Below are positions 1,232-44,300 of a DNA stretch of 64,000 nucleotides, piece by piece (position 1 is the stretch's first letter; the number at the start of each line of letters is the position of its first letter). The position numbers and the translations under genes are program-made. Source of the DNA: Mytilus trossulus (taxonomy: Eukaryota); contig NC_086383.1 in assembly GCF_036588685.1 (NCBI RefSeq), forward strand, positions 19,158,001 to 19,222,000. Direction: 5' to 3'. The notes under the pieces are model-generated. The model saw only the letters and a program-made list of their open reading frames with translations, was not told the DNA's origin and ran no database searches.

Positions 1232-1392
1232 TGGCACAACGTTTTGGAATTTTGAGTCCACAATGCTCTTCAACTTTGTATTTCTTTGGCTTTACAACTA
1301 TTTTGATATGAGCGTCACTGATGATTCTTATGCAGACGAAACGTGCGTCTGGCATATTAAATTATAGTCCTGGTACCTTTGATAACTATTAT
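1232..1392 (+). mobile_element. Fragment of a hammerhead-containing interspersed repeat (retrozyme/Penelope pLTR-like)
   Basis: Surrounds the hammerhead motif at 1312-1355. Boundaries approximate. Confidence 0.55.
1312..1355 (+). ncRNA. Minimal type I hammerhead ribozyme motif (slightly degenerate)
   Basis: gcgtca-CTGATGA-ttct tatgc agac-GAAA-cgtgcg-TC-tggcat: core boxes intact, near-palindromic stem III, GUC cleavage triplet, mismatch at the base of stem II. Confidence 0.7.
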
Positions 1393-2022
1393 ATGAAATG
1401 ATTTATTGCAATACTTAAGTACAATCATGGTAAAAATGAATGTAACTAATGTCTCCTAGAGTTTTTTGGTAAGATTCCTTATTAATTAAAAAATCCAACT
1501 GGGTTTAATTCTATTTGGATTTCATATGCATTTGAAGTGTGGATCATGTCCAATTAGACAATGACAAGGTTTTTTTTAACAACATCGACTACCCATGAGG
1601 GTGTTGCAAGGTCGTTCATGATAACTCCAAAAGCTTTTAAAACTTGAACCAAACCTATGAACATTGGTAATGTTATGAATATGGGATAACACCAATTTAC
1701 TCGGAACTACACAGACTTGGGTTAACTATTACCAGTGTTCATTCGGAAGACGACTACGTCATATCAAATAGTTCCGGGGTTTTCCATAGTATATTTGAGT
1801 CATTACCCAAGTTGTTATCCAGATCAAACGTCCCAAGTTGTCGAGCTGCCTAAAAGATAGCTAATGACTCAAGCCTAGGATTGTGATATTATAGGTAATA
1901 TATTGCATACACTATCCCTATAAAATCATTACAGTATTAAACATTTGATAATTTGACAAATTGTTAATCATAACAAACACATATGAATCTGATAGTCAAT
2001 TAAATAACTTATTTTTTCTTAC

Positions 2023-2367
2023 TACTAATTGGACAACTCTGTCCTTCCATCAAGGTTACATCATCAATAGCAACAATGGCGGGTGCTAAAAAGGAAGTGT
2101 CTCCATAGGCAACAAACTCAATAGTTGTCTCCCCTGCAGGAAGTTCAAAAGATCCTTCCAACCAATCATCAGTCTCCACATAGATTCCATTGGCATAGAA
2201 TACCAACTGCCTTACTCCAGATCTTCTTGAATAAACTTTCAGTTCTGCTGACACGCCCCCTTCCATGTTGTAATAGAATTTTACACATCCTCCAGGTGTT
2301 GTCAGATAAGGGGGAGAGGTCAAGGTTGCTGTCTGTCTACTGTCAGATGTGACAAACATGTAGTGAC
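2023..2367 (-). CDS. Exon, MAM14 C-terminal part (GHYMFVTSD...[17 protein letters not shown])
   Basis: CAG acceptor, GTAAG donor, 345 nt, phase 1-1. Confidence 0.93.
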
Positions 2368-5300
2368 CTGGAAAAAAAAAACAACATGAAAATTTATCAC
2401 ATCATAGACATTGACACATTATGAACAAGAACCTTTTAATAGTAGATATGCTCAAATTTCCATGACTCAACTATAAATAATTGTGATCTCTGACACATAT
2501 CTATTATCTTATTTTAGGTTTCCCAAAACCACTTTTTTGCAAAAATTTCAGTCTAGCTTTAATTACTATGACATTTATTCTTTTTATCTAGGGGTACAAT
2601 AAATTATCTTCAACTTAGACCCTGTTTACACTTGTAAAAAAAGATTATTTCCTGAGATAGATCGAGATCAATCTAAAAGAGATCAACCTGTAGTCTAATT
2701 TAAACGAAAAGATCAATCTTTAATCGGTCTTTAAAATGCACCTCCAGAGGTGGTTTTAAAAATATCAATCTTATTCGAATCGATCTTTCTTTAAGTGTAA
2801 AAGCTAAGATTAATTGCGAACTACCCTTTTTCAGGTGAATATTATATTTAGAATATGAAAATAAATCTGCGCATATTCAATTTATCAAATAACACTCTTT
2901 TGAAGTGTTTGGTTGGGGTTTGAATAGACAATTAGGGTAAAATAATGGTTAGGGTTCCAAAGAACTGAATATCTTGCCATCTTTTGCTATTAATAGCAGG
3001 CTCAACAAAAATGAGGGAAAAAAAATCAATTAAAATTTTTCCTCTAGAAACTATCTTTTGATTGTAAGAAGCTTCTGTCCAAAATTGGTAAAAATTCAGG
3101 ATAGTTTATGAATCAAATGAATGTTATAAAACTTCAGACTGTGTGTAATGTTAACTGGTAGAAAAAACTAAGTTCATTTATATGTAAAATACGGATTTTT
3201 CTTTCTTTTTTTCTTTACAAATTTCCTTCTGGATACTATCTTATAATCATAAACAAGCTTCTGTCCAAGTTTGTTAGAATCCAGGATAGTTTAAGAAAAT
3301 TATAAAAATATAGTATATATACCAATACACATAATTAACAGCGCCTGGTGATGTTTTATAGCCTGACCGGTTTTGGTCCATAAAGGACCTTCATCAGAGG
3401 CAGAATGGTGGATTAATGTTTGCACCCTATTTATATAGATATGGTAACCGGCAGTTGAGTTAACCGGCAGTTGAGTTGACCGGCGGTTGAGTTGATCGGC
3501 GGTTGAGTTAACCGGCGGTTGAGTTGACTGGCGGTTGAGTTAACAGGCGGTTGAATTGACCGACGGTTGAGTTGACTGGCGGTTGAATTAACCGGCGGTT
3601 GAGTTGACCGACGGTTGAGTTGACTGGCGGTTGAGTTGACCGGCGGTTGAGTGAACCGGTGATAAATCCCAGTGGGATTTTCCATGGTTACAGTTATCTA
3701 TATTTGGCTAATGTACATGTTACAGTAAACTTTTTGACATGTTACGGTAAACATTTTTACATTATACGGTAAACATGTGACCTGATGATATAACCATATT
3801 TGGGCTTTAGCATTCGATAAAGGGTGTTTAATCATTTAAGAAGTACATGGTAACCATTTAGTCTTGATCTTTGGCTTATGATACACCTAAATATCAAGTC
3901 TTGGAATAGTATTTCATGGTAGTTAACCGTCGGTCAATTCAACCGCCTGTTAACTCAACCGCCAGTCAACTCAACCGCCGGTTAACTCAACCACCGATCG
4001 ACTCAACTGCCGGTCAACTCAACTGCCGGTTAACTCAACTGCCGGTTACCATATCTATATAAATAGGGTGCAAACATTAATCCACCATTCTGCCTCTGAT
4101 GAAGGTCCTTTATGGACCGAAACCGGTCAGGCTATAAAACATCACCAGGCGCTGTTAATTATGTGTATTGGTATATATACTATATTTTTATGCTTTTACA
4201 TTTTTCTCACTGATACACATAGTTAATATGGCTTCTACTAAGGAAAACTCCATTTGGAGTTAATGTGTTTAGAGACTACTTATGTCAGTACACCTTTCCT
4301 ATATTGCCTAGTTTAAGAAAATTATTAAAATTTCAAAAACTTTAACCACAGAGTGAATATTTGTGGACACCACCCCCAACAATGAGGTTGACAGAATGTA
4401 GAATCACTATGTCTTGCTTCTTCGACTAAAGTCGAAGACTTGAAGGCGTGACAAAAAATAGAAAATAAAAAACAATGGGGTGTTAAAGTCATTTGAAACC
4501 TCAAATTACAAAAAAATATGCATATGTTTTTTATAACTAACTGGATAGTTTTCATTATACAACTTATGTACATATACTTTTTTCTGTGGAAAATTCTTTA
4601 ATTTGTCCACATTTAGAAGAAGTTTACTTATTCTTAATTGCTTGCTTCCAGGAAGCAATTCGCCAACATATTTTCTGTATGCATAGTGACCCGAGCGTAA
4701 CCCTCCACGTAAATCTCTGGTGATCGCAATACGCATGGATCTGTCATTGAAATAAACAAATATCTGATTATACATGTTAAACACGTGCTCAATACCCATG
4801 CTTTTTGTGATTTGTTTACTATAAGGTGACAATCAGTAAAACTCGGCTTTAAAACACGGCATTTAATGAGCAGCCACATTTGTTAAATAATAACAAACAG
4901 AGAGAAAAAAAATTGACGATTATTTGACATATATGCGAAAATAATGATAAAATCGTGCATAGAGGACTAAGTTTATGATATATACATGCATTGGATCAAG
5001 AATTGGATCAACATTATTTTTCACCACTCACTCATTTCATATGACTTTAAAATAGAATAATTGGCAAAAAAAAAATTGAGAATGGAGATTACTGTCTTAA
5101 TTCATTTAAGAACACAGATAATATGATCCCAAATTTAGAAATTATATAAGTGTAAATTCAGAAATTATTGCTTGCATTTATTATGCTATTTTTGACAAAA
5201 ATGTGATATAAATTTTTGCGATATTGAGAAAAATCCTGTTTAATTCATAACAAAAAAAAAATTCAAAATGCAACTTTAAATTAAAATTATTGCAAATATA

Positions 5301-8300
5301 TTATATTATATTTTCGCAAAAATAAAAACATTAATTTTTTTTTTTAAATTTTGCAGTATTTTAAATTGTCTATATGTTATTACCTGTGTGGTTACCAGCA
5401 CCCATGGTGTGATCAGCTGCTGGCAAATGGTGAACAAAAGCATCTCTCCAAATATAGCTACCAAAATAATATCCACATCCGTAAGGCTGCTCAAAGTCAC
5501 AACTTATGCTAATGGCTGAAATGGTAAATAGTATATAACTTCATTACCATGACAATTTATGTTACAAGTGTCAAATTTTAAGCATCTAAAATGTTTTTGA
5601 AGATCCATTGATGACCTTGGGCTGTTTTCAGCTCTTTGGTGGAGTTGTTGACTTTTTGACATATTCCCCATTTTAAATCACATTTTTAATAAAAATCGTG
5701 TGTCTTAATATTATATATAGATAAAGAAGACCTACATACTGCTGACTTGGCTTTATCAAATTTACCAGAAATCATATGCTCCTTTAGTGTAAGGTCCAAT
5801 AAGAATGTGTCCAAAGTACACCGATGCCCCACTTGCATTATTATTTTCCATGTTCAGTGGACTGTGAAATTGGGTCAAAACTTTAATTTGACATTAAATT
5901 AGAAAAATCATTATTAACCATAGGGAACATTTGTAATAAGTTTCAAGTTGATCTGACTTCAACTTCATCAAAAACTACCTTGACCAAAAACTTTAATCTG
6001 GGCAGACTGACGGATGAACTACCGGACACATAGACTGAAAAAACAAAATGCACCTAAGTTGGGTATAAAAAACAAATTCAAATCAACTTACGGCAGTCTG
6101 CCTCATCTTCACCAGAGGGACACTGGGAGATCTTATCACATTCTATCTTCTCCTCAATACATATACCATCTTTATGACAGGGTGACAGACCACTTGGACA
6201 AACTGCAAAGAAAAGAAAAACAAATTTTTCAATATACAAGATAAAATATATCATCTGTAAATGCAGTATGCAGGAAAAATTGCAACATGTGTTTATCATA
6301 TGTTTTCAAAACATATGAAAAACATATGTTGCAATTTTTCCTATGTACTATATATAAAAACTGCAGATTCAATTTGTTTATAATAAAAATTTCTTTGAAA
6401 ATATAATTAAAAATAAATATTTTGTAAATAAAAACAGCAGATGAGACTCTCCCAAGGTCAAATGAACATAAAAATCATCAGAACATATAGCACACTGAAT
6501 TTGCAACAAGGGCCAATATATGAATATCTTTTCCAAAATACAAGGATAGATAACACTTTTCAATGTGAATATAACTTTACTTTTTAATTTTTTAAAATTT
6601 AGAGGTTAATGTTATGACTAAACAGAGGTTAATATCATCCTTATAAAGAGGTCAATGTCATCACTATATAGAGGTCAATGACATCATTTTATAGAGATTA
6701 ATGTCATCACTATACATATGTCAATATTGTCACTATACAGAGATCAATGTCATCACTATACAGAGCTCAATGGCATCCCTACTGTAAATTCAGACACTTA
6801 TTATTGCGATTTTGCCATTTTAGACAAAATTCTACTTTAAATTTTCTTATGATTTCGAGAAAATCTTGTTTAATTAATATATAGTATTTCAAAATGCGAG
6901 TTTAAATTATTGCCTTTACAACTCTATCGCAATTTTAGCAATAATTAAAACCTTACAATAATTTCTGAATGTACAGTATATATACAGAGGTCAATATCAT
7001 CACTATACATTGGTCAATGTCATCACTATATAAAAAGGTCAATGCCATCACTATACAGAGGTCAATGTCATCACTTTACAGAGGTCAATGTCATTGCTAT
7101 ACAAAAGTCAATGTAATCACTATACAGAGGTCAATGTCATCACTATACAGAGGTCAATGTCATTGCTATATAGAGGTCAATGTCATCACTTTACAGAGGT
7201 CAATGTTATTGATATACAGAGGTCAATGTCATCACTATAAAGTTGTTAATATCATCACTATATATATATAGAGGTCAATGACATCACTATACAGAGGTCA
7301 ATGACATTGCTATACAGAGGTCAATGTCATCACTATAAAAAGGTTAATATCATCACTATATATAGAGGTCAATGCCATCACTATAAAGAGGTCAATCTCA
7401 TCACTTTATAGAGGTCAATGTTATCACTATGCAGAGGTCAATGTCATTGCTATATAGAGGTCAATGTAATCAATATATATAGTATCAAAGACATCACAAT
7501 ATAAAGGTCAATCTCATCACTATAGAGGTCAATGTTATCACTGTATAGAGGTCAATGCCATCACTTAACAGAGGTCAATGTCATCACTGTACAGAGGTCA
7601 ATGTTATCACTATACAGAGGTCAATTTCATTACTATATATAGATCAATGTCATCACAATATAAAAGTCAATATAGTCACTATACAGAGGTCAATGTCATC
7701 ACTAAACTGAAGCAAATGTATGAATATATTCCAAATGTACTGGCTGGTTATAACACTTTTCAGTGTGGACATAATTCTATCTTTACTTCAAACTAGAACA
7801 ATGGTATCACTATATAAAGGTCAACAGCATCCCTATATAGAGGTCAATATCAACACAATATAGAGATTAATGGCATTGCTATATATAGGTCAATGCATAT
7901 TTCATCCCTCAACAGAGGTCAGCCTCATCACTATATAGAGGTCAATGTCATCACTATATAGTGGTCAATATCAACACTATATAGAGATTAATGTCATTGT
8001 TATATATATGTCAATGTCATCACTATATAGAGGTCAATATCAACACTATATAGAGATTAATGTCATTGTTATATATAGGTCAATATCAACACTATATATA
8101 GGTCAATGTAATCACTATATAGGGGTCAATGTCATCACTATATAGAGGTCAATGTCATCAATATATAGAGGTCAATGTCAACACTACATATAGGTCAATG
8201 TCATCACTATATAGAGGTCAATGTCAAAACTATACAGAGGTCAATGTCATCACTATATAGGGGTCAATGTCATCACTATATACAGGTCAATGTCATCACT

Positions 8301-11300
8301 ATATAGAAGTCAATGTCAACACTATACAGAGGCCAATGTAATCACTATATAGGTCAATGTCATCACTATATAAAGGTCAATGTCATCACTTTATAGGTCA
8401 ATGTCATCACTATATAGAGGTCAATGTCAACACTATATATAGGTCAATGTGATCACTATAAAGAGGTCAATGTCATCACTATACAGAGGTCAATGTTATC
8501 ACTATACAGAGGTCAATTTCATTGCTATATATAGATCAATGTCATCACAATATAAAAGTCAATATAGTCACTATACAGAGGTCAATGTCATCACTAAACT
8601 GAAGCAAATGTATGAATATATTCCAAATGTACTGGCTGGTTATAACACTTTTCAGTGTGGACATAATTCTATCTTTATTTCAAACTAGAACAATGGTATC
8701 ACTATATAAAGGTCAACAGCATCCCTATATAGAGGTCAATATCAACACAATATAGAGATTAATGGCATTGCTATATATAGGTCAATGCATATTTCATCCC
8801 TCAACAGAGGTCAGCCTCATCACTATATAGAGGTCAATGTCATCACTATATAGTGGTCAATATCAACACTATACAGAGATTAATGTCATTGTTATATATA
8901 GGTCAATGTCATCACTATATAGAGGTCAATATCAACACTATATAGAGATTAATGTCATTGTTATATATAGGTCAATATCAACACTATATATAGGTCAATG
9001 TAATCACTATATAGGGGTCAATGTCATCACTATATAGAGGTCAATGTCATCAATATATAGAGGTCAATGTCAACACTATATATAGGTCAATGTCATCACT
9101 ATATAGAGGTCAATGTCAAAACTATACAGAGGTCAATGTCATCACTATATAGGGGTCAATGTCATCACTATATACAGGTCAATGTCATCACTATATAGAA
9201 GTCAATGTCAACACTATACAGAGGCCAATGTAATCACTATATAGGTCAATGTCATCACTATATAAAGGTCAATGTCATCACTTTATAGGTCAATGTCATC
9301 ACTATATAGAGGTCAATGTCAACACTATATATAAGTCAATGTGATCACTATAAAGAGGTCAATGTCATCACTATATAGAGGGCAATGTCATCACTATATA
9401 GAGGTCAATGTCAACACTATGCAGAGGTCAATATCATCACTATATAGAGGTCAATGTCATCACTATATAGAGGTCAATGTCAACACTATATAAAGGTCAA
9501 TGTCATCACTATATAGGTCAATGTCATCACTATATAGGTCAATGTCATCACTATATAGAGGTCAATGTCAACACTATGCAGAGGTCAATATCATCACTAT
9601 ATAGAGGTCAATGTCAACACTATGCAGAGGTCAATATCATCACTATATAGAGGTCAATGTCATCACTATATAGAGGTAAATGTCAAAACTATACAGAGGT
9701 CAATGTCATCACTATATAGAGGGCAATGTCATCACTATATAGAGGTCAATGTCATCACTATATAGAGGTCAATGTTATCACTATATAGGTCAATGACATC
9801 ACTTTATAGAGGTCAATGTCATCACTATATAGGTCAATGCCATCACTATATAGAGGTCAATGTCAACACTATGCAGAGGTCAATATCATCACTATATAGA
9901 GGTCAATGTCATCACTATATAGAGGTCAATGTTAACACTATGCAGAGGTTAATGTAATCACTATATAGAGGTCAATGTCATAACTATATAGAGGTCAATA
10001 TCATTACTATATAGAGGTCAATGTCATCACTATATAGAGGTTAATATCATCACTATATAGAGGTCAAGTTCATCAACTATACAGAGGTCAATGTCATCAC
10101 TATACAGAGATCAATATCATCACTATACAGAGGTCAATGTCATCAACTATACAGAGGTCAATATCATCAATATACAGAGGTCAATATCATCAACTATACG
10201 GAGGTCAATGTCATCACTATACAGAGGTCAATGTCAATACTAATCAGAGGCCAGTGTATAATTATCTATTCAAAACTTACCCAACGGAGGACAATCTCCA
10301 GGGGTTATTTTTACATCATCTATTCCAAAGTATTTAACATCATAGGCGTAATCATATAAACGAAAGTTGATTTCCATCCTTCCAGGAGCAATGGGCATCT
10401 GCAAATAAAATATTTGATGTAAACTCTTGATAGACCAAAAAGCCTTGTAAAATTTGTATATCAATTATATATAAGTTATATTGTGGGTTATAAATGTCTT
10501 CCAATAAAATAAAATACAAGTTTAAGGTGGTACACAACACTTTCACTTAAACTAATTTGGCTCGTTTAATTTTTATAAAATTTTGTCAAAGGATTTATTT
10601 TGACCCTTTAACAAAAATATAAAAATTTCACAAATTTTGAACCAACCGTTTTAACAGAAAATTACACTGGTAATATAGCAGTTTGACAAACACTAATTTT
10701 GATCAAGCTTAATATTCCTTTTACAACACAATGTACTTAAAACATTTAGCGGACTTTACAGATTCATCTCCATGTAGTGTTAGGTAACACCTTAAGACCG
10801 CATCAAGAGTTTGTGTTGTAACCTTTGAACTCAATATCATCCTATTCAAACTTGTTATCTCTGTAAAATGGAAAGTTTCCATAATAATATTCCTACTGTG
10901 ACACTAACCAAATTGCACCTATTTTGACAGTTTTTTCAACTACGTTTTTTTATGATGAAGACAAACATTTCCATTTGTGTATCCTTCTTTATTATATAAA
11001 TACACCAATTTGATTTTCAATTCATATGGAATCATAGAAAAATTGGTCTGAACTAGCCTCCAAACCATCAATGATTTTGTAATGAGGAGTACCCAAATTG
11101 CATCCATGCCTAAATTTGCATCGTCAAAAGTCAAATAACAAAGCTTTTGTTTATTTTTTTCAAATATTTTGAACAATTGGATATTTGTCCATGCTTAGTC
11201 TTTTTTTTTTAAGAAATGGATACTTGAAACATATTGTATTTGCTAATTTTAAAAAGATGATGTTTTAATAACGTGGCATGGCGATGTTTCAGTACATTTT

Positions 11301-14300: not shown

Positions 14301-17300
14301 AAAGATCCCGAGGTGGTGGAAGAATGATGACATGCAATAAGGACAAAAAGAGACAAAAACAAGTGAAACTGTGAGCTACTGCTCACTGATGATACCCCCA
14401 CCGCAAGTGGATAATATTAATAGTGTAAAAATATGCAAGTGTTCGGTAAACAGGAAGTTGTCAAGTGATGAATCTGAAAACGCATCACACGGTATAGCTG
14501 ACTTAAATAAATCCTGAAACCAAATTTGAGAAATCCTTGTATTGTAGTTCCTGAGAAAAATGTGACGAAAATTTCAACTTGGCTATCATGTGTAAAATCA
14601 TACAAGTGTTCGGTAAACAGGAAGTTGTCAAGTGATCAATCTGAAAATGCATCACACGGTATAGTTGACTTATATAAACCCTGAAACCAAATTTCAGAAA
14701 TCCTTGTATTGTAGTTCCTGAGAAAAATGTGACGAAAATTTTCAACTTGGCTATCAAGTGTAAAATCATACAAGTGTTCCGTTAACAGGAAGTTGTCAAG
14801 TGATCAATCTGAAAACGCATCACACGGTATAGTTGACTTATATAAACCTTGAAACCAAATTTCAGAAATCCTTGTATTGTAGTTCCTGAGAAAAATGTGA
14901 CGAAAATTTTCAACTTGGCTATCATGTGTAAAATCATACAAGTGTTCGGTAAACAGGAAGTCTATGAATGATGAATCTGAAAACGCATCACACGGTATGG
15001 CTGACATATATAAATGTTGATACCAATTTACAGAAAGAGTGGATGTGTAGTTCCTGAGAAAAATGTGACGAAAGTTTCATGGGACGGACTGACGGACTGA
15101 CAGACAGAGGTAAAACAGTATACCCAAGCGGGGGTATAATTAAGAAATAATTCATGGAAGCCATAGATTATTGGAAATTTACACATGGCCTGGGCCGTGA
15201 TATTCGAATTTTATCCTGAGCTTTAGCGAGGGATAAAATCAACGAATATCACGGCCCAGGCCATGTGTAAATTTCCAATAATCTATGGCTTCCATGAATT
15301 ATTTCGATTCTAATAGGAAAAATACGATCATTAAAAAAACTGAAGCGAGGGTGGGTAAATTTGTGTGTATGGCTGTTCTTTTTTACTCCCTGTTAGATAA
15401 AGCTAATCATTTTAATAGATCCGTAGCTTGCACGGATTATTTCGTGAACAACTGCTGAAAAAAAATATGCTTCATTCTCAAAACCAACAGTTGTCATGTT
15501 GATTTATATGTTTTTCCCGTGAGCTACCGTCAAATCCAAAGTTGACATTTCGTAACCAATGAGCCGCCATGTTGACTTGCTGAAATCAGTACATATGCGA
15601 ATAATGCAATAGAATAGAAAATCAAACATAACCTACCTTGATAATCAATTTTAATACAATTGTAAACGACATGTCAATAGTTTACGTAACAGAAAACGTT
15701 CAACTCTAGAGTTTTCATTTGTATGACGTCATGTTTTGAAATGACTTAAATGCGCCAAAAACATTAATAGACTTTCACGGAATTTTATTTAATTTTTATT
15801 TTGTTGGTTTCTCCGAGCTCTTATGCATTACTTCTTTTTATTATGCATCCGAATAAGACTAAAAGTGATTTTGTCTTTTCTGAATTGCAATTTTTAAAAC
15901 AATTAAATCGACAAAGGGTTTGCAATTAGGTGTCAATACATGTGGATTTACGTGGGAAGTATATTGTAACAGCCATTATTATGTACACCACGGAGTCTGC
16001 GCTAAGTATAGATATATCGAGAATTTTATCACAGTGTTGTTTACAAAGCGAAAGAAGCACGTCATATTAGAATAACAAATGAATTTATAAAATAAATCTT
16101 GTATCAAAAGAAATATCATTGTATTACTTTTTTTGATATTGTTGTTCCTGAGTAAATAAGTATTAATGTAAGGGTCCTACTAAAATGCGCCCGGGAGCGC
16201 CCGGGTGAAGAAAAAGCGCCCCTGGAAAAGAAAAAGCGCCCGGGGAAGAAAACATAGCGCCTGGGGAAAAGAAAAAGCGACTGGGGAAAATATAAAAAAT
16301 ATTTTGTTGGCTTGAGACAACTTTGTGTCGATGAAATCAGTTATGAACATTGATTTTTTTTTAATTTTAGACAAGTTATTTGCAAATTCAGATAATAGAC
16401 ATTTGTAATGAAGCACAAAAACAAGTAAGAATGTTTCAATTTTAACAATAATATATGAATACTATTTCGAAAGACAGATAATACTGGATCACAGTTAATG
16501 CGGAAGATTTATAAAATGTAACACGTCAAAATACATGTTTTTAAAAACGATATCAACATGAAAAATGTAAAAAAAAAACAACCTTAAATTTAAGTCACAG
16601 ATAAATATTAATTTAATCAAAATTAAATAAATTACACATAATTAATCAGCAGATAAAGCAGTACTATACATGTACCGGAGTTAGAACACGGGGATAAAGA
16701 GCAGGAGTTTTGTGTCAATTTAAAACTTTGCATTAAAACCCTGATAAGCATAGCCATTGGAACAGTTATAGCTTAACAAAAAGATATAATAAATATGTAT
16801 CAGTATCTGAATAAGAAAGTGTTCACCATGCAGTTGCGAAAATATTACACCTCAGGCACTGATTATTTTTAAATAACAAACTTATACATTTTGATTGAGG
16901 ACAATATCGTTCATGATTCTTCTATACACTCTAACTTATATTTAAAGAAAAAAAAAAAAATTTTTGTTTAATTTTTTTATTTTAATTTATAATTTTCTCC
17001 TCCGGGCGCTAATTTCCCTTTTCTGGGCGCTTTTAGGTTTTCCCCGGGCGATTTTTCTTTTCCCGGGCGCTCTCAGGCGCTTTTTAGTAGGACCGTAATG
17101 TAATGGTTTATGATGGTAATATATACATTTATATAAATTATATTATGTATATATAATCAAGGACCTTCGTTTTTTGTGGATAGTTGTCCGGTTAGAAGAC
17201 ATGCAGCATCTTCTTATTTTCGTAAATATTGCGATCATCCTGAACACACATTGGATCTAATAATGTCTTCACTCTTCCTAGTTATATATACTACTTTCAA

Positions 17301-26300: not shown

Positions 26301-29300
26301 ATTGGAAACAGAAAGACAGAAAGACGAAGGTTAAGGTTACAATTAATGCCCCTGCAAAAGCCTCCATTGTCAACGACTGGGGCATAAAAAGTTTTAAATC
26401 TCTTTGAAAAACTATACATTAACCAAACATGATTAATGGTCAAATACACAATATTGACCATTATGCATTTTGTTTTCATTTCTTTAGTATCAAATAAGTA
26501 GAAAATCACTCAAACATTTCAAAGCATTATATATTTATTGTAATGATATAAACATAACAAGAACGCATGCTAAGCATGCACTTACTTGTAATTCAAAGTA
26601 TTGGTAGACAGGAAGTAGGTGTCTGACAGATCTGCCTGTTCAGTTGCAGACCAGTATACAATTATCAAATCAGGGATCCAGGAAAAACCTACCTGAACTG
26701 GTACCTTCTGTATGATCTACTCTTGGTACATACTGTGCCGCCATGGAAGAATAGTTTTGCATCAGATTGTATGTTCCCCAATTCCATGCAAAGGGTGACT
26801 CTGACAATCTGGTGTAACGACAGAATGTGGCCGACTGGAAATCACATGACGCAAAATCTACAATAGAAAGGTTCATAAAGAGGGTCTCAAAAGGTTTTAA
26901 TGAATAATCTAATATGATGTGCTTCTTTTGTTTTGTAACCAAAACCTTGATAAAATTCTTAATATATCTATACTTGGCACAGACCCTGAGATGTACATAA
27001 TTATGGCTGTTACAATATATCTCTACTTAAATACACATGTATTGTGTATAACCTACATAATTATGGCTGTTACAATATATCTCTACTTAAATACACATGT
27101 ATTGTGTATAACCTACATAATTATGGCTGTTACAATATATCTCTACTTAAATACACATGTATTGTGTATAACCTACATAATTATGGCTGTTACAATATAT
27201 CTCTACTTAAATACACATGTATTGTGTATAACCTACATAATTATGGCTGTTACAATATATCTCTACTTAAATACACATGTATTGTGTATAACCTACATAA
27301 TTATGGCTGTTACAATATATCTCTACTTAAATACACATGTATTGTGTATAACCTACATAATTATGGCTGTTACAATATATCTCTACTTAAATACACATGT
27401 ATTGTGTATAACCTACATAATTATGGCTGTTACAATATATCTCTACTTAAATACACATGTATTGTGTATAACCTACATAATTATGGCTGTTACAATATAT
27501 CTCTACTTAAATACACATGTATTGTGTATAACCTACATAATTATGGCTGTTACAATATATCTCTACTTAAATACACATGTATTGTGTATAACCTACATAA
27601 TTATGGCTGTTACAATATATCTCTACTTAAATACACATGTATTGTGTATAACCTACATAATTATGGCTGTTACAATATATCTCTACTTAAATACACATGT
27701 ATTGTGTATAACCTATGTCCAAATGTTATACAATATACAGATTAAAGAAATTGCTGATTCAAAATTGCAATTGAAAAACTTACAGTTTCTTTTTTGTTAT
27801 TATGAGGCTTTTTTTTCATCACATCAAATTGACTGTTTTTAAACCTGTTTAGCTAACAGAATCGATTCAAAGAACAAAAAGAGTTTAAATTAACATGACT
27901 GTTTTTAACCTGTTTAACTCAAAGGAACAAAAGTTTTGTTTTTCCCAGATTAGAATCAGTAGGTTGCATTCATGGAAAAGCGATCAGGATTGTAGTTACG
28001 ACAATAGAAGTATAAACTTACGTGGACATTCAGTTCCTAACAGTTCAACATCATCTACTTCTATATCATTAGCATATGAGCTCCCTCTAGTGGCAACAAA
28101 TTCAAGTTGACCATTGATTATCTCCCCTGTGGTGAACTCTGACATTGGCACACAAGCTGATTCCCATGATCCATAGGTGTCCAGAGAGTCTTTCAGGAAT
28201 ATTTGTTTTGTTTCTCCATTGTGGTTCAAATTTACCTTGAATAAAATAAACATGATCTTTGATAAGTATTTGTTTTGTTACTCCATTATGGTTCAAATTC
28301 ACCTTGAATAAAAGAAAACCTGATTATTTGGAATATAATGTATAAAGTTATAAAGGGACATAACCAATATAAAGTTATATAGGGACAAGGCTAACTCAAG
28401 TTAAAGAAGGAAAACAAAAATTCAGCAATTTTTGCATTTGCAAAGGAGCATAACTCCTGTAACAATTAAAGTGACACCCCTAAAATTTAAACTTGATCTG
28501 TATTTTGTGGTAATAAGCATTGTGTATAAGTCTCATAACATTTGGTTAAGGTGAAGATAAGAGAATGGAATTCAACTTTGGTAGGTACAGACAACCAATA
28601 GTAACTCTTAATGCCCCCTCTGATGGGGGCGTGATGGGGGCATAAAAAGTCTTTCTCCAGGCACTTCAACCACCAATAAAAAAGGGCCACCATGAAATAG
28701 CCCAAAGGCGGTGCTTAAAAGTGGCGTTAAAAATGCAAAATATCAAATCAAATCAAATACTGGAATACCTGTAAAGATCCACTACAGCTATCATTTCTGC
28801 TGCCAGTATTCCTATATTTTAATTTCAGATTGTGACTGGTTGTGGCATTGAGTGGCAATGTAAATTTGGCCTTGTCCTCATGTCTTCCAAATGATGCATC
28901 TGCTGTTAGATATTTACCAGCATCTAGGTGGAGTAAAAAAAAAAAGTTAGTGGAAAAAAAAACAATCAATAAGAATAAATTAATATGAAAACAATATTGT
29001 TAAAAAGCAGCAAAAATGGCTAGAAAAGACTTAACACTAAATATAGAATTGTCAAAGTTAAATTGGTCAATCTGAAAATTGTGCAGTTATTATCTTTTAT
29101 TATACAAACCACTAGAAGATCCTAGAACTAAGCAGACCAAAATAAGTGTATAGGAAGATTGTGCATGTAAGCAAATAATGTGATTCATCCTCCAAATATG
29201 ATATTGCATGAATTAAAGTATACAACATAAGTTCACTAAGAATATTTTAGCATGCTTCTTAAGTACAGAGGTGTCTTAATTGTTTTTTTACATACTATAA

Positions 29301-35300: not shown

Positions 35301-38300
35301 AAAAAACAGCAATTAAACATATAAAACCGTATATTATAAAAGATAATTCAGTCCAATTTTCAATACTAAATCAACAACTGAAATGATTCCATATTTTGTT
35401 GAAACATCGTACGAACGGAAAACGGAATCGCAGGTATAAAAATGCATTTTTTCACTCGGACGTCTATGTTTTTTTGATAGTCAAACGGTTGTCCCCCTAA
35501 ATACAAAAATACATCTACAAGAACGTATGCTGAACTTTCTTAAATCCACTAACGTTTTTCAAAAGTTTCAAGCTATGTATTGCATTAGAAAACATACATA
35601 GGTGTTTAACAATGACAGACCAGGAGCCTGTTTAACGAAATACTATGGCTTGATCTGGGCGGAGTCTCTGATCTGGGTCACAAAGATGGCCATACGCGAC
35701 GGCATGAAAGCAATTGCTTTAAAAACAGACAAATAATAGAACACAACACACAACATAGAAACTAAAGACTAAACACGAACTCCACACAAAACTGGGGGTG
35801 ATCTCAGGTACTCTGGAAGGGTAAGCAGATCCTGCTCCACATGTGGCATCGTCGCAATACATGAGACAATAATCCATCAAGAGTACAAATGACATGGATG
35901 TATGCAACTAGAGGTCACAATACTGCCTTCAATAGTAAGCAAGACCCAGGCGCTATAGAAAGCTATAAAAGGCTTCCAGGTGCTGGATTTGCACGCTGCA
36001 TTGAAGACTGATTGGTGGCATTTGACTGTCATCTGCTCTTTGGTAAGCTTGTTGTCTCTTTGACACATTCCCAATTTCCATTCTCAATTTTATTGACACG
36101 AAAAATATTGAAACTATTCATATCATATAACCAATGGCCTGATTCATTTCTAAAGAGTCATCTCCTATTGGTCAATCTATTCAATTGATATAACCAATGG
36201 CCTGATTCATTTCTAAAGAGTCATCTCCTATTGGTCAATCTATTCTTCTGTCAGTTCTATTGTCCAATTGAATAAACACGATAATACCAACAGACTAGAG
36301 ATAATTATTGGACTTACGCATATCCTAGATACTGACATACTAGAGACGGACAGTATGCTGTATCATAACAATACACATAACCAAATTGGTTGTTGATAAC
36401 AATTTCCACGATCCCTTCAATGGCGGAAGTGATATTAGTTGTTGGTAGTACATCCATATGGGATATCTTGGCTATAAAATACAAACAAAATTAGAAGCAA
36501 TACATCATTTTAAATATATTTGTGCACATTCTTTAATTATAAATGAAGAATGACTGTGTTCATGGGACAATGTACACTGTAGATGATGCCCCTTGCGTGT
36601 AAAGTTAAAGGACACTGAGTGAGCTAGAGAACTGTAAAAGTGACACAACTCAAAGTTCAAAAGCTGTGATAATATTAGCATTGTGTATAAGTTTAATAAC
36701 ATTTGGTTGAGGCAAACTAAAGTTAGAGAACAGAAACTAATTTTTTGACTAACACATCTTAAATCTTAGATGGTAACATGTCATTGGGCATCACATTTTA
36801 TTGTACTTTCTAACACATACATATGTAATCTACAGAAACAGAAGATTGTAATCATATAAATATACAATTTATAGTCATAGTGTTTTCCCCAAGCATGCAT
36901 GTTGAGCATGGATAGACGCTTTGCCATTTTAAAATGACACTATGCCCTTTTTCACTTCTTAGGATGACGCCAGTGTCCCTTTAATGCCTTAATAGAAGTC
37001 TTTACAAAAATAAAATTTCAAAATTTTCATGCCCATCGGCAGTCAATACTTACTTGTTCCATATGGAGTAGTTCTAGGGGTTGTATTAGTGGAATAATTG
37101 GTTGATAGGCAGTCAATACTTACTTGTTCCATATGGAGTAGTTCTAGGGGTTTTATTAGTGGAATAATTTGTTGATAGGCAGTCAATACTTACTTGTTCC
37201 ATATGGAGTAGTTCTAGGGGTTGTATTAGTGGAATAATTTGTTGATAGGCAGTCAATACTTACTTGTTCCATATGGAGTAGTTCTAGGGGTTGTATTAGT
37301 GGAATAATTTGTTGATAGGCTGTCAATACTTACTTGTTCCATATGGAGTAGTTCTAGGGGTTGTATTAGTGGAATAATTTGTTGATAGGCAGTCAATACT
37401 TACTTGTTCCATATGGAGTAGTTCTAGGGGTTGTATTAGTGGAATAATTTGTTGATAGGCAGTCAATACTTACTTGTTCCATATGGAGTAGTTCTAGGGG
37501 TTGTATTAGTGGAATAATTTGTTGATAGGCAGTCAATACTTACTTGTTCCATATGGAGTAGTTCTAGGGGTTGTATTAGTGGAATAATTTGTTGATAGGC
37601 AGTCAATACTTACTTGTTCCATATGGAGTAGTTCTAGGGGTTGTATTAGTGGAATAATTTGTTGATAGGCAGTCAATACTTACTTGTTCCATATGGAGTA
37701 GTTTTAGGGGTTGTATAAGTGGAATAATCTGTTGATAGGCAGTCAATACTTACTTGTTCCATATGGAGTATTTCTAGGGGTGGTATTAGTGGAATAATTT
37801 GTTGATAGACAGTCAATACTTACTTGTTCCATATGGAGTAGTTCTAGGGGTTGTATTAGTGGAATAATTTGTTGATAGGCAGTCAATACTTACTTGTTCC
37901 ATATGGAGTAGTTCTAGGGGTGGTATTAGTGGAATAATTTGTTGATAGGCAGTCAATACTTACTTGTTCCATATGGAGTAGTTCTAGGGGTTGTATTAGT
38001 GGAATAATTTGTTGATAGGCAGTCAATACTTACTTGTTCCATATGGAGTAGTTCTAGGGGTTGTATTAGTGGAATAATTTGTTGATAGGCAGTCAATACT
38101 TACTTGTTCCATATGGAGTAGTTCTAGGGGTTGTATTAGTGGAATAATTTGTTGATAGGCAGTCAATACTTACTTGTTCCATATGGAGTAGTTCTAGGGG
38201 TTTTATTAGTGGAATAATTTGTTGATAGGCAGTCAATACTTACTTGTTCCATATGGAGTAGTTCTAGGGGTTGTATTAGTGGAATAATTTGTTGATAGGC

Positions 38301-41300
38301 AGTCAATACTTACTTGTTCCATATGGAGTAGTTCTAGGGGTTGTATTAGTGGAATAATTTGTTGATAGGCTGTCAATACTTACTTGTTCCATATGGAGTA
38401 GTTCTAGGGGTTGTATTAGTGGAATAATTTGTTGATAGGCAGTCAATACTTACTTGTTCCATATGGAGTAGTTCTAGGGGTTGTATTAGTGGAATAATTT
38501 GTTGATAGGCTGTCAATACTTACTTGTTCCATATGGAGTAGTTCTAGGGGTTGTATTAGTGGAATAATTTGTTGATAGGCAGTCAATACTTACTTGTTCC
38601 ATATGGAGTAGTTCTAGGGGTTGTATTAGTGGAATAATTTGTTGATAGGCAGTCAATACTTACTTGTTCCATATGGAGTAGTTCTAGGGGTTGTATTAGT
38701 GGAATAATTTGTTGATAGGCAGTCAATACTTACTTGTTCCATATGGAGTAGTTCTAGGGGTTGTATTAGTGGAATAATTTGTTGATAGGCAGTCAATACT
38801 TACTTGTTCCATATGGAGTAGTTTTAGGGGTTGTATAAGTGGAATAATCTGTTGATAGGCAGTCAATACTTACTTGTTCCATATGGAGTAGTTCTAGGGG
38901 TGGTATTAGTGGAATAATTTGTTGATAGACAGTCAATACTTACTTGTTCCATATGGAGTAGTTCTAGGGGTTGTATTAGTGGAATAATTTGTTGATAGGC
39001 AGTCAATACTTACTTGTTCCATATGGAGTAGTTCTAGGGGTTGTATTAGTGGAATAATTTGTTGATAGGCAGTCAATACTTACTTGTTCCATATGGAGTA
39101 GTTCTAGGGGTTGTATTAGTGGAATAATTTGTTGATAGGCAGTCAATACTTACTTGTTCCATATGGAGTAGTTCTAGGGGTTGTATTAGTGGAATAATTT
39201 GTTGATAGGCTGTCAATACTTACTTGTTCCATATGGAGTAGTTCTAGGGGTTGTATTAGTGGAATAATTTGTTGATAGGCAGTCAATACTTACTTGTTCC
39301 ATATGGAGTAGTTCTAGGGGTTGTATTAGTGGAATAATTTGTTGATAGGCAGTCAATACTTACTTGTTCCATATGGAGTAGTTCTAGGGGTTGTATTAGT
39401 GGAATAATTTGTTGATAGGCAGTCAATACTTACTTGTTCCATATGGAGTAGTTCTAGGGGTTGTATTAGTGGAATAATCTGTTGATAGGCAGTCAATACT
39501 TACTTGTTCCATATGGAGTAGTTTTAGGGGTTGTATAAGTGGAATAATCTGTTGATAGGCAGTCAATACTTACTTGTTCCATATGGAGTAGTTCTAGGGG
39601 TGGTATTAGTGGAATAATTTGTTGATAGGCAGTCAATACTTACTTGTTCCATATGGAGTAGTTCTAGGGGTTGTATTAGTGGAATAATTTGTTGATAGGC
39701 AGTCAATACTTACTTGTTCCATATGGAGTAGTTCTAGGGGTTGTATTAGTGGAATAATTTGTTGATAGGCAGTCAATACTTACTTGTTCCATATGGAGTA
39801 GTTCTAGGGGTTGTATTAGTGGAATAATTTGTTGATAGGCAGTCAATACTTACTTGTTCCATATGGAGTAGTTCTAGGGGTTGTATTAGTGGAATAATTT
39901 GTTGATAGGCAGTCAATACTTACTTGTTCCATATGGAGTAGTTCTAGGGGTTGTATTAGTGGAATAATTTGTTGATAGGCAGTCAATACTTACTTGTTCC
40001 ATATGGAGTAGTTCTAGGGGTTGTATTAGTGGAATAATTTGTTGATAGGCAGTCAATACTTACTTGTTCCATATGGAGTAGTTCTAGGGGTTGTATTAGT
40101 GGAATAATTTGTTGATAGGCAGTCAATACTTACTTGTTCCATATGGAGTAGTTCTAGGGGTTGTATTAGTGGAATAATTTGTTGATAGGCAGTCAATACT
40201 TACTTGTTCCATATGGAGTAGTTCTAGGGGTTGTATTAGTGGAATAATTTGTTGATAGGCAGTCAATACTTACTTGTTCCATATGGAGTAGTTCTAGGGG
40301 TTGTATTAGTGGAATAATTTGTTGATAGGCAGTCAATACTTACTTGTTCCATATGGAGTAGTTCTAGGGGTTGTATTAGTGGAATAATTTGTTGATAGGC
40401 AGTCAATACTTACTTGTTCCATATGGAGTAGTTCTAGGGGTTGTATTAGTGGAATAATTTGTTGATAGGCAGTCAATACTTACTTGTTCCATATGGAGTA
40501 GTTCTAGGGGTTGTATTAGTGGAATAATTTGTTGATAGGCAGTCAATACTTACTTGTTCCATATGGAGTAGTTCTAGGGGTTGTATTAGTGGAATAATTT
40601 GTTGATAGGCAGTCAATACTTACTTGTTCCATATGGAGTAGTTCTAGGGGTTGTATTAGTGGAATAATTTGTTGATAGGCAGTCAATACTTACTTGTTCC
40701 ATATGGAGTAGTTTTAGGGGTTGTATAAGTGGAATAATCTGTTGATAGGCAGTCAATACTTACTTGTTCCATATGGAGTAGTTCTAGGGGTGGTATTAGT
40801 GGAATAATTTGTTGTAAACAGTCAATACTTACTTGTTCCATATGGAGTAGTTCTAGGGGTTGTATTAGTGGAATTATTTGTTGATAGGCAGTCAATACTT
40901 ACTTGTTCCATATGGAGTAGTTCTAGGGGTTGTATTAGTGGAATAATTTGTTGATAGGCAGTCAATACTTACTTGTTCCATATGGAGTAGTTCTAGGGGT
41001 TGTATTAGTGGAATAATTTGTTGATAGGCAGTCAATACTTACTTGTTCCATATGGAGTAGTTCTAGGGGTTGTATTAGTGGAATAATTTGTTGATAGGCA
41101 GTCAATACTTACTTGTTCCATATGGAGTAGTTCTAGGGGTTGTATTAGTGGAATAATTTGTTGATAGGCAGTCAATACTTACTTGTTCCATATGGAGTAG
41201 TTCTAGGGGTTGTATTAGTGGAATAATTTGTTGATAGGCAGTCAATACTTACTTGTTCCATATGGAGTAGTTCTAGGGGTTGTATTAGTGGAATAATTTG

Positions 41301-44300
41301 TTGATAGGCAGTCAATACTTACTTGTTCCATATGGAGTAGTTCTAGGGGTTGTATTAGTGGAATAATTTGTTGATAGGCAGTCAATACTTACTTGTTCCA
41401 TATGGAGTAGTTCTAGGGGTTGTATTAGTGGAATAATTTGTTGATAGGCAGTCAATACTTACTTGTTCCATATGGAGTAGTTCTAGGGGTTGTATTAGTG
41501 GAATAATTTGTTGATAGGCAGTCAATACTTACTTGTTCCATATGGAGTAGTTCTAGGGGTTGTATTAGTGGAATAATTTGTTGATAGGCAGTCAATACTT
41601 ACTTGTTCCATATGGAGTAGTTCTAGGGGTTGTATTAGTGGAATAATTTGTTGATAGGCAGTCAATACTTACTTGTTCCATATGGAGTAGTTCTAGGGGT
41701 TGTATTAGTGGAATAATTTGTTGATAGGCAGTCAATACTTACTTGTTCCATATGGAGTAGTTCTAGGGGTTGTATTAGTGGAATAATCTGTTGATAGGCA
41801 GTCAATACTTACTTGTTCCATATGGAGTAGTTTTAGGGGTTGTATAAGTGGAATAATCTGTTGATAGGCAGTCAATACTTACTTGTTCCATATGGAGTAG
41901 TTCTAGGGGTTGTATTAGTGGAATAATTTGTTGATAGGCAGTCAATACTTACTTGTTCCATATGGAGTAGTTCTAGGGGTTGTATTAGTGGAATAATTTG
42001 TTGATTGACTAGTTCCTGTACTGCTATTTCTCAAATAGTCTGAAATAAAATTAATATTACACTCTAATTAAAATGTATTAAAGAGTTCAATTTTTGCATC
42101 AATGTTGTTATGAAAATTTACTCTTAAAGTTTGACAACTCAGGGGTGTGGAAATATTTGTTGTGAGCACTTGTCCCCGGGCAAGTGAAACCTAAAATTTT
42201 ACTTGTCCGGAAAAAAATTTACTTGCCCTGATGATCCCAATAAATATTGAAGTATTTCTTGTTTTATGTAGCTAATATATGATTTTTACTTAGCACTGTT
42301 GTGCATCACAAACAAATGAAATCCATTTGTTTATATGTGTAATAAATAAGGAAAGTAGGATAGGGTTTACATCAATTGGACAGAAACCTAATAGCAAACC
42401 AACCAATGAAATGACATGTATAAAAGGACAATTTTGCAGCAGTTTTGGAATAAAAATTGAAGCCAGTCATATACTAAATTTGAGGACAGTGATTGAAGAA
42501 ATATAAACTAAATAATAGATAAACTATTGATTTTGTGGTGTTTCTCTCAACTGACACACTTGATTTTTTCTTGATTATTTATTATTGTCTTGATGGGCAA
42601 TTAAAGCGTCCCTTCAGTCTTCTTTTTACCACTTGGACAACAAATTATGTTGATCTTTCATCTATAAATAAGACAAAAACTTAATTTATTTTCCGAATTT
42701 CCATAGATAACCAGGGGCAATTTGATATTCACGATGTCTGAAATTCTTGCTTCCGTTTTTTTTTTTTAAATACTCTGTGTCCTTCATTTGCATTTAAGGT
42801 TTTCTAATCGACTCATGACTCTTTTTGTCTTGCTTGCCCAGCTTTTTATTAAGTATTTATTAATCTGAATCTCAATACAAAATTTAAAGAAATGACACTT
42901 CCGGTAAATGATGGATAAAACCTAATCGACGATCCCGGGTCAATGGACAAAGCCAATGGCAATGTTACGCGACTTGGGTTCGCATACTTTTTTTAATTTA
43001 TTTTGGTAAGCGATCTATTTCCAGTATAATGTAATAATTATCGTCATGAACATTGATGTTTTTACTTGCTGAACATTGGTTTCTTTTACATAAATTAAAC
43101 ATCTTTATACGTTTTGAAATTAATTTTATGTTTTTGTTGGATTTGAACCTTGTCTTGTATATTTTTTTACTTGTCCACGGGCAACCAAGACAAAAATAAT
43201 TACTTGTCCGGTTGTTCAAATGTACGAGTCGGGCGAGTCGGGCATAGCATTTCCACACCCCTGCAACTAAATATTTTCTTTTAAAATATTTTAATATTGT
43301 GTTTCTGAAAAAAAAAATATTCACTCACACGCTAAAAATGTAAAACAATTAGAATGAGAAAATAACAGCCTAATTAATAACAAAAGAAATTACAAAACAC
43401 ATTATGACTTTAACTCCATGACAACCAATGAACTTCAGTCTCCTGACTTAGGGCAGGCACATAAAGAATTTGGTTGTGTTAAACTTACCGGGACAAGTGG
43501 TGTAACAGCACATTTTATTGTCATTGTCAATATAATGGTATTTCATGTGACTGTCATACAAGTGAGAGGTATAGCTAGCTATAAAACCAGGCTTAAACCA
43601 CCATTTCTACATAGAAAATGCCTATACCAAGTCAAGAATATGACAGTTGTAGTCCATTCGTTTGATGTGTTTTATCATTTGATTTTGCAATTCAATTAGG
43701 GACTTTCCGTTTTGAATTTTCCTTGGAGTTCAGTATTTTTGTGATTTTACTTTTAATCATAAACAAACGTATAGTAGGCGTCACGTCTTGTATGTACTTG
43801 CATACTGTGCAAATACAATAAAAGGTAGGACAGTAGTAGATATTTAATTGGATTTGTCTTCCGCTAATTAAAAAGCATGATCTCGAGTAAACACGGTCGA
43901 TATTTAAGAAAATTTTGACAAATCGTGATGCCAATTTTACGTGACGGCAACTATAGTAACATACCTGGTAGCTTTATACAATCCTTATCATCACGCAACA
44001 GATTACAGTAGTAAACCAGATTGTAGTTGTTCAATAAATTGTGGTGACGACATACTCCAAAATGTAATGTATGGAAGGCATCTAAAAAATATATTTAATA
44101 CTGACATTCATTCAAATAGCGGTGAAAAAATAATATCAATTTGCATCTGAGCTGTGTCAGATAAAAATCGTAAATAACAAGATATCTTATTTGCAACACT
44201 TTTGACAAAGGTGAAAACAATATATCAAAAATTTGAAGTTGCCAGTGTTTTGTCTATCATCTCATAGACATAGTCATGTAACTATGACATTATCAATGTT

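Follow-up and report, generated by a model that had tools for sequence, protein, structure and literature searches.

The question raised by this locus is how a gene-less piece of about 1 kb, built from two facing copies of the same sequence, came to be pasted into the genome of Mytilus trossulus. The window, a stretch of 64,000 nucleotides of contig NC_086383.1, holds this insert at 3304–4308, flanked by exact 17-bp direct repeats at 3287–3303 and 4309–4325. An earlier note, made from the letters of this DNA, had taken it for a recent insertion of a family mobilised by Penelope-like elements (PLEs). This reading is upheld with some corrections: the insert derives, with truncation, from a 1.18-kb unit that is non-coding and carries a predicted hammerhead. 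With a probability of roughly 0.8, we read it as a 5'-truncated, two-armed copy of this repeat that was likely pasted by an endonuclease-bearing PLE enzyme acting in trans. Mobilisation by a PLE is supported by two fixed ends, by the rule that each two-armed insert pairs one of them with the other, by a target-site duplication (TSD) of ~16 bp, and by an NTT preference on both strands. The features of the locus are given below, where unit position 1 is the first base 3' of the predicted ribozyme cut and the window arms were mapped on a natural unit (L031:3059–4239).

2009..2401, minus strand: host gene exon region with a MAM domain (Pfam PF00629, E 4e-14), downstream of the insert
3287..3303, plus strand: left TSD copy, 17 bp, exact repeat, single copy in 11/11 host-repeat paralogues
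3304..3925, minus strand: tail-less inverted arm, unit ~668–1181 then 1–~59, outer end at start site B
3361..3401, minus strand: hammerhead motif with G12>A at 3374 (CpG transition), likely inactive
3447..3652, minus strand: 16-bp minisatellite, 12.9 copies, belonging to the family unit
3925..4308, plus strand: tailed direct arm, unit ~978–1181 then 1–176, outer end at start site A
3925..4048, plus strand: 16-bp minisatellite, 7.8 copies, cut by 5' truncation at the inversion joint
4092..4132, plus strand: type I hammerhead motif with full core, letters seen directly, predicted cut after 4128
4153..4228, plus strand: tentatively predicted 20-bp hairpin, its loop containing start site B
4190..4308, plus strand: tail of ~115 nt between start sites B and A, present on one arm only
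4309..4325, plus strand: right TSD copy, 17 bp, exact repeat of the left copy, the sequence being single in the paralogues
6078..6305, minus strand: host gene exon region with an LDL-receptor class A repeat (Pfam PF00057, E 4e-4, a match below the curated cut-off), upstream of the insert

The 17-bp duplication is indeed a perfect direct repeat, and it is a true TSD because a sequence resembling the 17-mer occurs only once in all 11 host-repeat paralogues, 9 of which continue for at least 50 bases into the right flank of the window. The joining of an inverted to a direct copy was also borne out: the arms at 3296–3568 and 3925–4197 span 273 nt and are 98% complementary, and the minisatellite reported for both arms is present in each. 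The few arm differences mentioned in the note amount to 4 of 265 positions, every one a CpG transition (CpG accounts for 32 of the 265). The tail, which had been called unique and ~120 bp long, is absent from the other arm, but it measures ~115 bp and is family sequence, hence not unique beyond the insert. The longest stop-to-stop frames over the insert are 79–90 aa and the longest ATG frame in two parent units is 97 aa, in agreement with the claim that there is no ORF of note; a 59-aa frame in the tail matched family copies only. The word "recent" holds loosely, with 2 differences from the nearest copy compared over 277 bases of the right part of the insert, besides the arm differences given above. 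For the predicted hairpin, the fold of its L031 equivalent gave a z of −2.49, and three pairs are changed on both sides, a number reached by 11 of 500 shuffles.

Splice signals of the AG/GT type were seen. We infer that the two host exon regions belong to the same minus-strand gene, in which the insert is likely intronic. The fold predicted for the host-gene strand of the insert contains a stem with 261 long-range pairs, in accordance with the ~265-bp stem envisaged previously; a single copy such as this one would at most give an intron a predicted stem of ~260 bp. The insert lies within a very high-copy host repeat (779 candidates and extreme read depth) that occupies ~2990–3303 and 4309–4400 of the window. 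Paralogues of this repeat show a tandem core and a GCC/GAC triplet run, and we take it to resemble the bivalve HINE/pearl-type elements. It dominates the contigs of four DNA runs, in which the joints across the insert derive from paralogues. RNA reads came from runs under another species label, whose flank differs from that of the window at 16 of 306 bases. One RNA-seq run contained 35 family reads in 12.4 million records, two small-RNA (miRNA) runs contained 2 and 3, and a fourth run gave 24 contigs, all from libraries not made for circles. Most reads continue into other sequence, as would be expected of embedded copies, and in these runs of another species label neither abundant family RNA nor an end pile-up at the cut site was seen. 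The window further contains several tandem arrays, namely a 23-mer ×140 at 6981–10236, a 168-mer ×3.9 at 14423–15077, a 60-mer ×12 at 26994–27715 (100%), a 70-mer ×71 at 37038–42005 (98%), and a 30-mer ×21.5 at 48927–49572.

The note had described twin hammerheads. The right-arm motif has an intact core with a 4-bp stem I, a 5-bp stem II followed by one extra base after position 9, and a short palindromic stem III, but the left core is broken by G12>A at 3374, a change that should inactivate a hammerhead. The assignment relies on direct inspection of the core letters and stems, together with 107 exact matches to the pattern in the genome, compared with 0 for the reversed pattern. Rfam hammerhead families gave no match up to E=1 or E=10. 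Single-strand MFE folds did not produce the hammerhead fold, as expected because stem III is weak, and a two-strand fold did not produce the canonical dimer. A short palindromic stem III and an extra base after position 9 have been described for metazoan and PLE hammerheads (PMC4209133), by analogy with which such a stem III suggests that self-cleavage may depend on dimer formation. The idea that the left, host-sense hammerhead was selected to die is not supported; the same CpG is changed in 12 of the 111 copies that could be scored, so that chance suffices for its decay. Decayed hammerhead-like motifs were also observed at ~1310–1360 (plus strand) and ~61800–61850 (minus strand) of the window. 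The former resembles a second hammerhead family with a 360–361-bp tandem spacing and 245 pattern matches, which is likely the published mussel retrozyme, the Mytilus repeats being given as 350–390 bp in PMC7229834.

The parent of the insert is an 1181-bp, non-coding, low-GC unit arranged in head-to-tail arrays, as exemplified by L031, where four hammerhead motifs lie 1181–1219 bp apart. The family is dispersed over the 107 intact motif sites, often as short tandem arrays, and the window copy has less than one unit per arm. It was first searched with a 259-base query, which yielded 430 candidates, of which 40 were scored. Copies consist of 5'-truncated arms and tandem units within TSDs of 11–19 bp, and many are one-armed or tandem; each copy has its own arm lengths and inner joints. 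The inverted two-armed anatomy was found at 47 of the 91 loci examined, each with flanks of its own, and so the inversion is not a local assembly error, the artefact considered in the note. The parent unit also has a poly-C/poly-G hairpin (L031:3422–3463, unit ~364–405) and a 55–69-bp internal repeat, which are absent from or cut off in the window copy. The family is best filed as a long retrozyme-like family that behaves like a non-autonomous PLE with endonuclease (EN+ PLE). No paper naming this family of 1.18 kb or its symmetric 16-bp target was found in a literature search that covered neither Repbase/Dfam nor paper supplements; those of PMC7229834 and bioRxiv 10.64898/2026.07.22.740005 may list this family.

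The outer ends of the copies bear on how they were inserted. Terminal ends from 71 loci fall into two clusters in 108 of 110 cases, 57 at unit positions 168–192 (site A) and 51 at 40–86 (site B), counted after two duplicate loci were dropped and on a sample that is not random, as the first 20 loci had been chosen with a query holding end A. At the junctions, site A is sharp at position 176, and site B is spread over ~55–75 in A/T-rich sequence. The RNA reads labelled another species break off at unit 175–178 as loose ends, indicating that site A is common to relatives. Among the 47 two-armed inserts, 44 combine A with B, 3 combine B with another end (one of these is a duplicate locus), and none has A+A or B+B. 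Every hammerhead-bearing arm crosses the ribozyme cut site unbroken, and neither end of the copies carries a poly(A) or simple-repeat tail. For the 41 two-armed inserts with a TSD, its length is 16 bp in 18 and 14–18 bp in 37, with edges uncertain by 1–2 bases through microhomology. The variable-length TSD of the earlier note needs amending: over copies the lengths range from 11 to 19 bp, but they are narrowly centred on 16 bp and not freely variable. NTT follows the top-strand boundary in 24/41 (background 0.13, p 9e-12) and the bottom-strand boundary in 20/41 (background 0.13, p 3e-8), in a table of which one row duplicates another locus and from which L088 and three duplicate loci were left out. 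The window's own site is without NTT on both sides. Such a mirror-image preference, with the two sites at a near-fixed spacing on opposite strands, would point to a nuclease that acts as a dimer.

These ends were compared with what other types of insertion leave behind. Long inverted arms inside a TSD, seen in the window alone, might be attributed to a DNA transposon or fold-back element with long terminal inverted repeats, or to an assembly artefact. The fixed symmetric ends and constant short TSD of a TIR DNA transposon or MITE, which the note had named as evidence against its own reading, are not what the copies show: the ends are asymmetric, the arms and inner joints vary from copy to copy, many copies have one arm or are tandem, and in the window itself the arms differ at 4 CpG sites within a TSD validated by paralogues. 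The transposon or fold-back reading is refuted by the family survey, and the chance left to it together with the artefact is negligible. Twin priming of a SINE-like RNA by a LINE has the TSD on its side, as L1-type insertion typically leaves duplications of 13–19 bp and 5' inversions. L1 twin priming, however, yields non-overlapping segments with a second site that is not fixed, whereas here both arms hold the same region and the outer end of the inverted arm is fixed; in addition, neither end has a poly(A) or simple-repeat tail. The A+B rule largely refutes this explanation, which we regard as very improbable. What the copies have in common with EN+ PLE insertions is an inverted 5'-truncated arm with a one-sided tail, found in 44/47, and a TSD around the whole unit in an AT-rich target.

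The PLE-mediated insertion that we prefer would proceed as follows. A dimeric PLE enzyme would nick both strands ~16 bp apart, leaving 3' overhangs. One of the ends would prime reverse transcription sharply at unit position 176 (site A), and the other would prime at ~55–75 (site B), aided by short A/T matches. Both cDNAs would be copied upstream through the cut site, from an uncut multimer or a re-ligated circle, and would end at random points, which in this insert are the minisatellite and position ~668. The two would then be joined head to head, and the left hammerhead would have decayed afterwards at its CpG. Since both start sites are downstream of the cut and the arms cross it, the template was presumably not a cut linear monomer read once.

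An enzyme for this process was sought among the PLEs of the genome. The unit has no ORF with RT plus GIY-YIG, and no PLE ORF is joined to it in sense at the fetched loci. The autonomous RT+GIY-YIG partner with the same terminus, for which the note had asked to search, did not turn up in 50 GIY-YIG loci and 8 Naiad loci; DNA comparison of the terminus with the 50 GIY-YIG loci, drawn from the 150 that were scored among 615 candidates, gave nothing significant. Seven sites with hammerhead variants carrying another stem I yielded no partner, and the 4 previously unseen ones mapped to the family. A pattern past end A hit 26 sites, of which the 2 previously unseen are family copies. Several candidates were rejected. 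The ORFs beside copies belong to a GPCR-like gene, to LINEs and to host genes; neither the Naiad at L102 nor the old PLE-like element at L280, which a copy interrupts, is a sense-joined partner; and the PLE families with C-terminal EN that make two-armed inserts sit in (TA)n and share no convincing terminus, their one match being 22 nt at a non-equivalent place and equalled by 5/200 shuffles. These several autonomous C-terminal GIY-YIG families (L225–L236) insert into (TA)n as two-armed copies whose tail, present on one side, is ~40–96 nt long and exceeds the published 30–40, so that a long tail is not unique to the present family. A young Naiad family of 1056 aa was also observed (L239–L268; 3008 candidates), which ends at one T-rich point. 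One short family copy (L098:3991–5163) with an 11-bp TSD lies just upstream of an intact 352-aa GPCR-like frame in the opposite orientation. Another copy (L102:3855–5898; G000:C4:59.39 Mb) meets a truncated Naiad-type PLE of similar divergence (93%), the two 5' ends facing each other, and no TSD is evident; this composite could be a two-RNA chimeric insertion or a chance adjacency.

The identity of the enzyme and the form of the template are where the remaining explanations diverge. That the mobiliser is an abundant Naiad-type PLE is brought to mind by the L102 composite, in which the 5' end of the element abuts a 5'-truncated Naiad, and by a T-rich match of 25 nt (84%) that pairs the site-B region with the 3' end of the 1056-aa Naiad family. 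None of 200 shuffles reached the score of this match, but it is the best of 7 families, chosen after the fact. Against it, the 1056-aa family has a TSD of 10 bp or more in 0/23 testable copies and a short inverted arm at 1/30 loci, alignment of the whole region is no better than shuffles (28/300), the start of a 1000-aa Naiad gives no match, and no TSD was found around the arm of the L102 element or, by eye, around the composite. We therefore consider Naiad improbable as the source. A bolder form of our own reading holds that a 1.18-kb circular hammerhead RNA hijacks the dimeric PLE enzyme at a symmetric AAN-16bp-NTT site, where the subunits, committed to different start sites, would each roll round the circle, so that one event would write both the arrays and the inverted arm. 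We offer this tentatively, as a rather unlikely though not fanciful proposal. Its competitor, which falls somewhat short of an even chance, has the same PLE enzyme copy a linear read-through multimer, with the arrays homogenised later by unequal crossover or conversion and no circle involved. Units differ by 2.0/kb inside insertions (12 pairs) and by 8.0/kb between them (159 pairs), private substitutions recur in every unit of L032, L034 and L035, inverted arm included, and multi-unit arms sit inside intact 16–19-bp TSDs, all of which speak against the linear multimer. This homogeneity within an insertion hints at the re-reading of one, possibly circular, RNA, as proposed for the monomer in retrozyme circles (PMC7229834). 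The linear multimer is favoured by the alternation of two unit types in L033, which needs a dimer circle or a linear multimer, by the RNA ends that do not pile up at the cut site, and by the 3/159 between-insertion pairs that are identical. Hammerhead cutting, moreover, was not needed for insertion in vitro (PMC11167929), and local amplification of tandems is favoured in bioRxiv 10.64898/2026.07.22.740005. Opposite arms are of the same subfamily type in 20/23 inserts, with a chance figure of 0.30 that ignores the different activity times of the subfamilies. The 3/23 inserts with arms of different type count against our main reading, as do the partner search that yielded no such element, a tail of ~115 nt that exceeds the published 30–40, and the thin RNA support.

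Two questions are open: how PLEs complete their integration, and by which enzyme animal retrozymes are moved. If the rolling-circle proposal is true, the family would be a genomic record in which one mechanism accounts for the circles of retrozymes, the tail of PLEs and the inverted pLTR. Retrozymes have been proposed to be mobilised by PLEs, a link argued from shared hammerheads, co-occurrence and pLTR similarity (PMC7229834; bioRxiv 10.64898/2026.07.22.740005). To this the present family adds evidence from junctions: the tail characteristic of PLEs is present, the two strands show the same NTT preference at a stagger of 16 bp, and each strand has its own start site. It also makes an in vitro test possible, with a short defined RNA (~200 nt after the ribozyme) and a defined target. 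The anatomy itself has been published; what the family contributes is the two-arm, one-tail rule for a hammerhead monomer without genes, along with a symmetric target of 16 bp and the homogeneity within an insert.

The family resembles the metazoan non-LTR retrozymes (Cervera and de la Pena 2020, PMC7229834; Li et al. 2026, bioRxiv 10.64898/2026.07.22.740005) in having a non-coding, low-GC tandem unit with one type I hammerhead, consecutive hammerheads along the array, dispersed monomers and short multimers, long TSDs, and PLEs in the same genome. It differs in unit size, 1181 bp versus 350–390 bp for mussel retrozymes (PMC7229834) and 51–972 bp in the preprint; it thereby falls outside the usual 150–450 bp, which is a size range and not a mechanistic property. 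It also has an internal minisatellite and only ~10^2 intact motifs, and its circular RNA is putative. Two-armed inverted insertions with two fixed ends, seen here, are unmentioned for retrozymes in the portions of these two sources used for comparison. They are familiar from EN+ PLEs, whose published layout is an inverted pLTR and a one-sided tail inside one 8–10-bp TSD (PMC3846280; PMC8557442). Units such as Pen2a_Av share with our family the head-to-head inverted 5'-truncated arm, the tail at one end, a hammerhead in the terminal repeat and a TSD around the unit; unlike them, it has no RT/GIY-YIG ORF, its tail is ~115 nt instead of 30–40, and its TSD is ~16 bp compared with 8–10 bp in Adineta (PMC3846280). 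Chlamys MRC1 and Chlamys-N4 (PMC8557442, PMC9977147) are likewise gene-less, head-to-tail multicopy and PLE-mobilised, but their 3' end resembles an autonomous partner and their targets are microsatellites, whereas here there is neither a partner match nor a microsatellite target. In PAc, the Poseidon of Anolis, two internal RT start sites bound a genomic tail, and the protein, a predicted dimer, acts on both strands with ATT as its most frequent cutting site (Frangieh et al. 2024, PMC11167929). The start sites downstream of the hammerhead, the cutting of both strands and the ATT-like preference on each are similar to those described above; for PAc in vitro, the start site was not seen to differ between strands, whereas 44/47 inserts of the mussel family have one A and one B.
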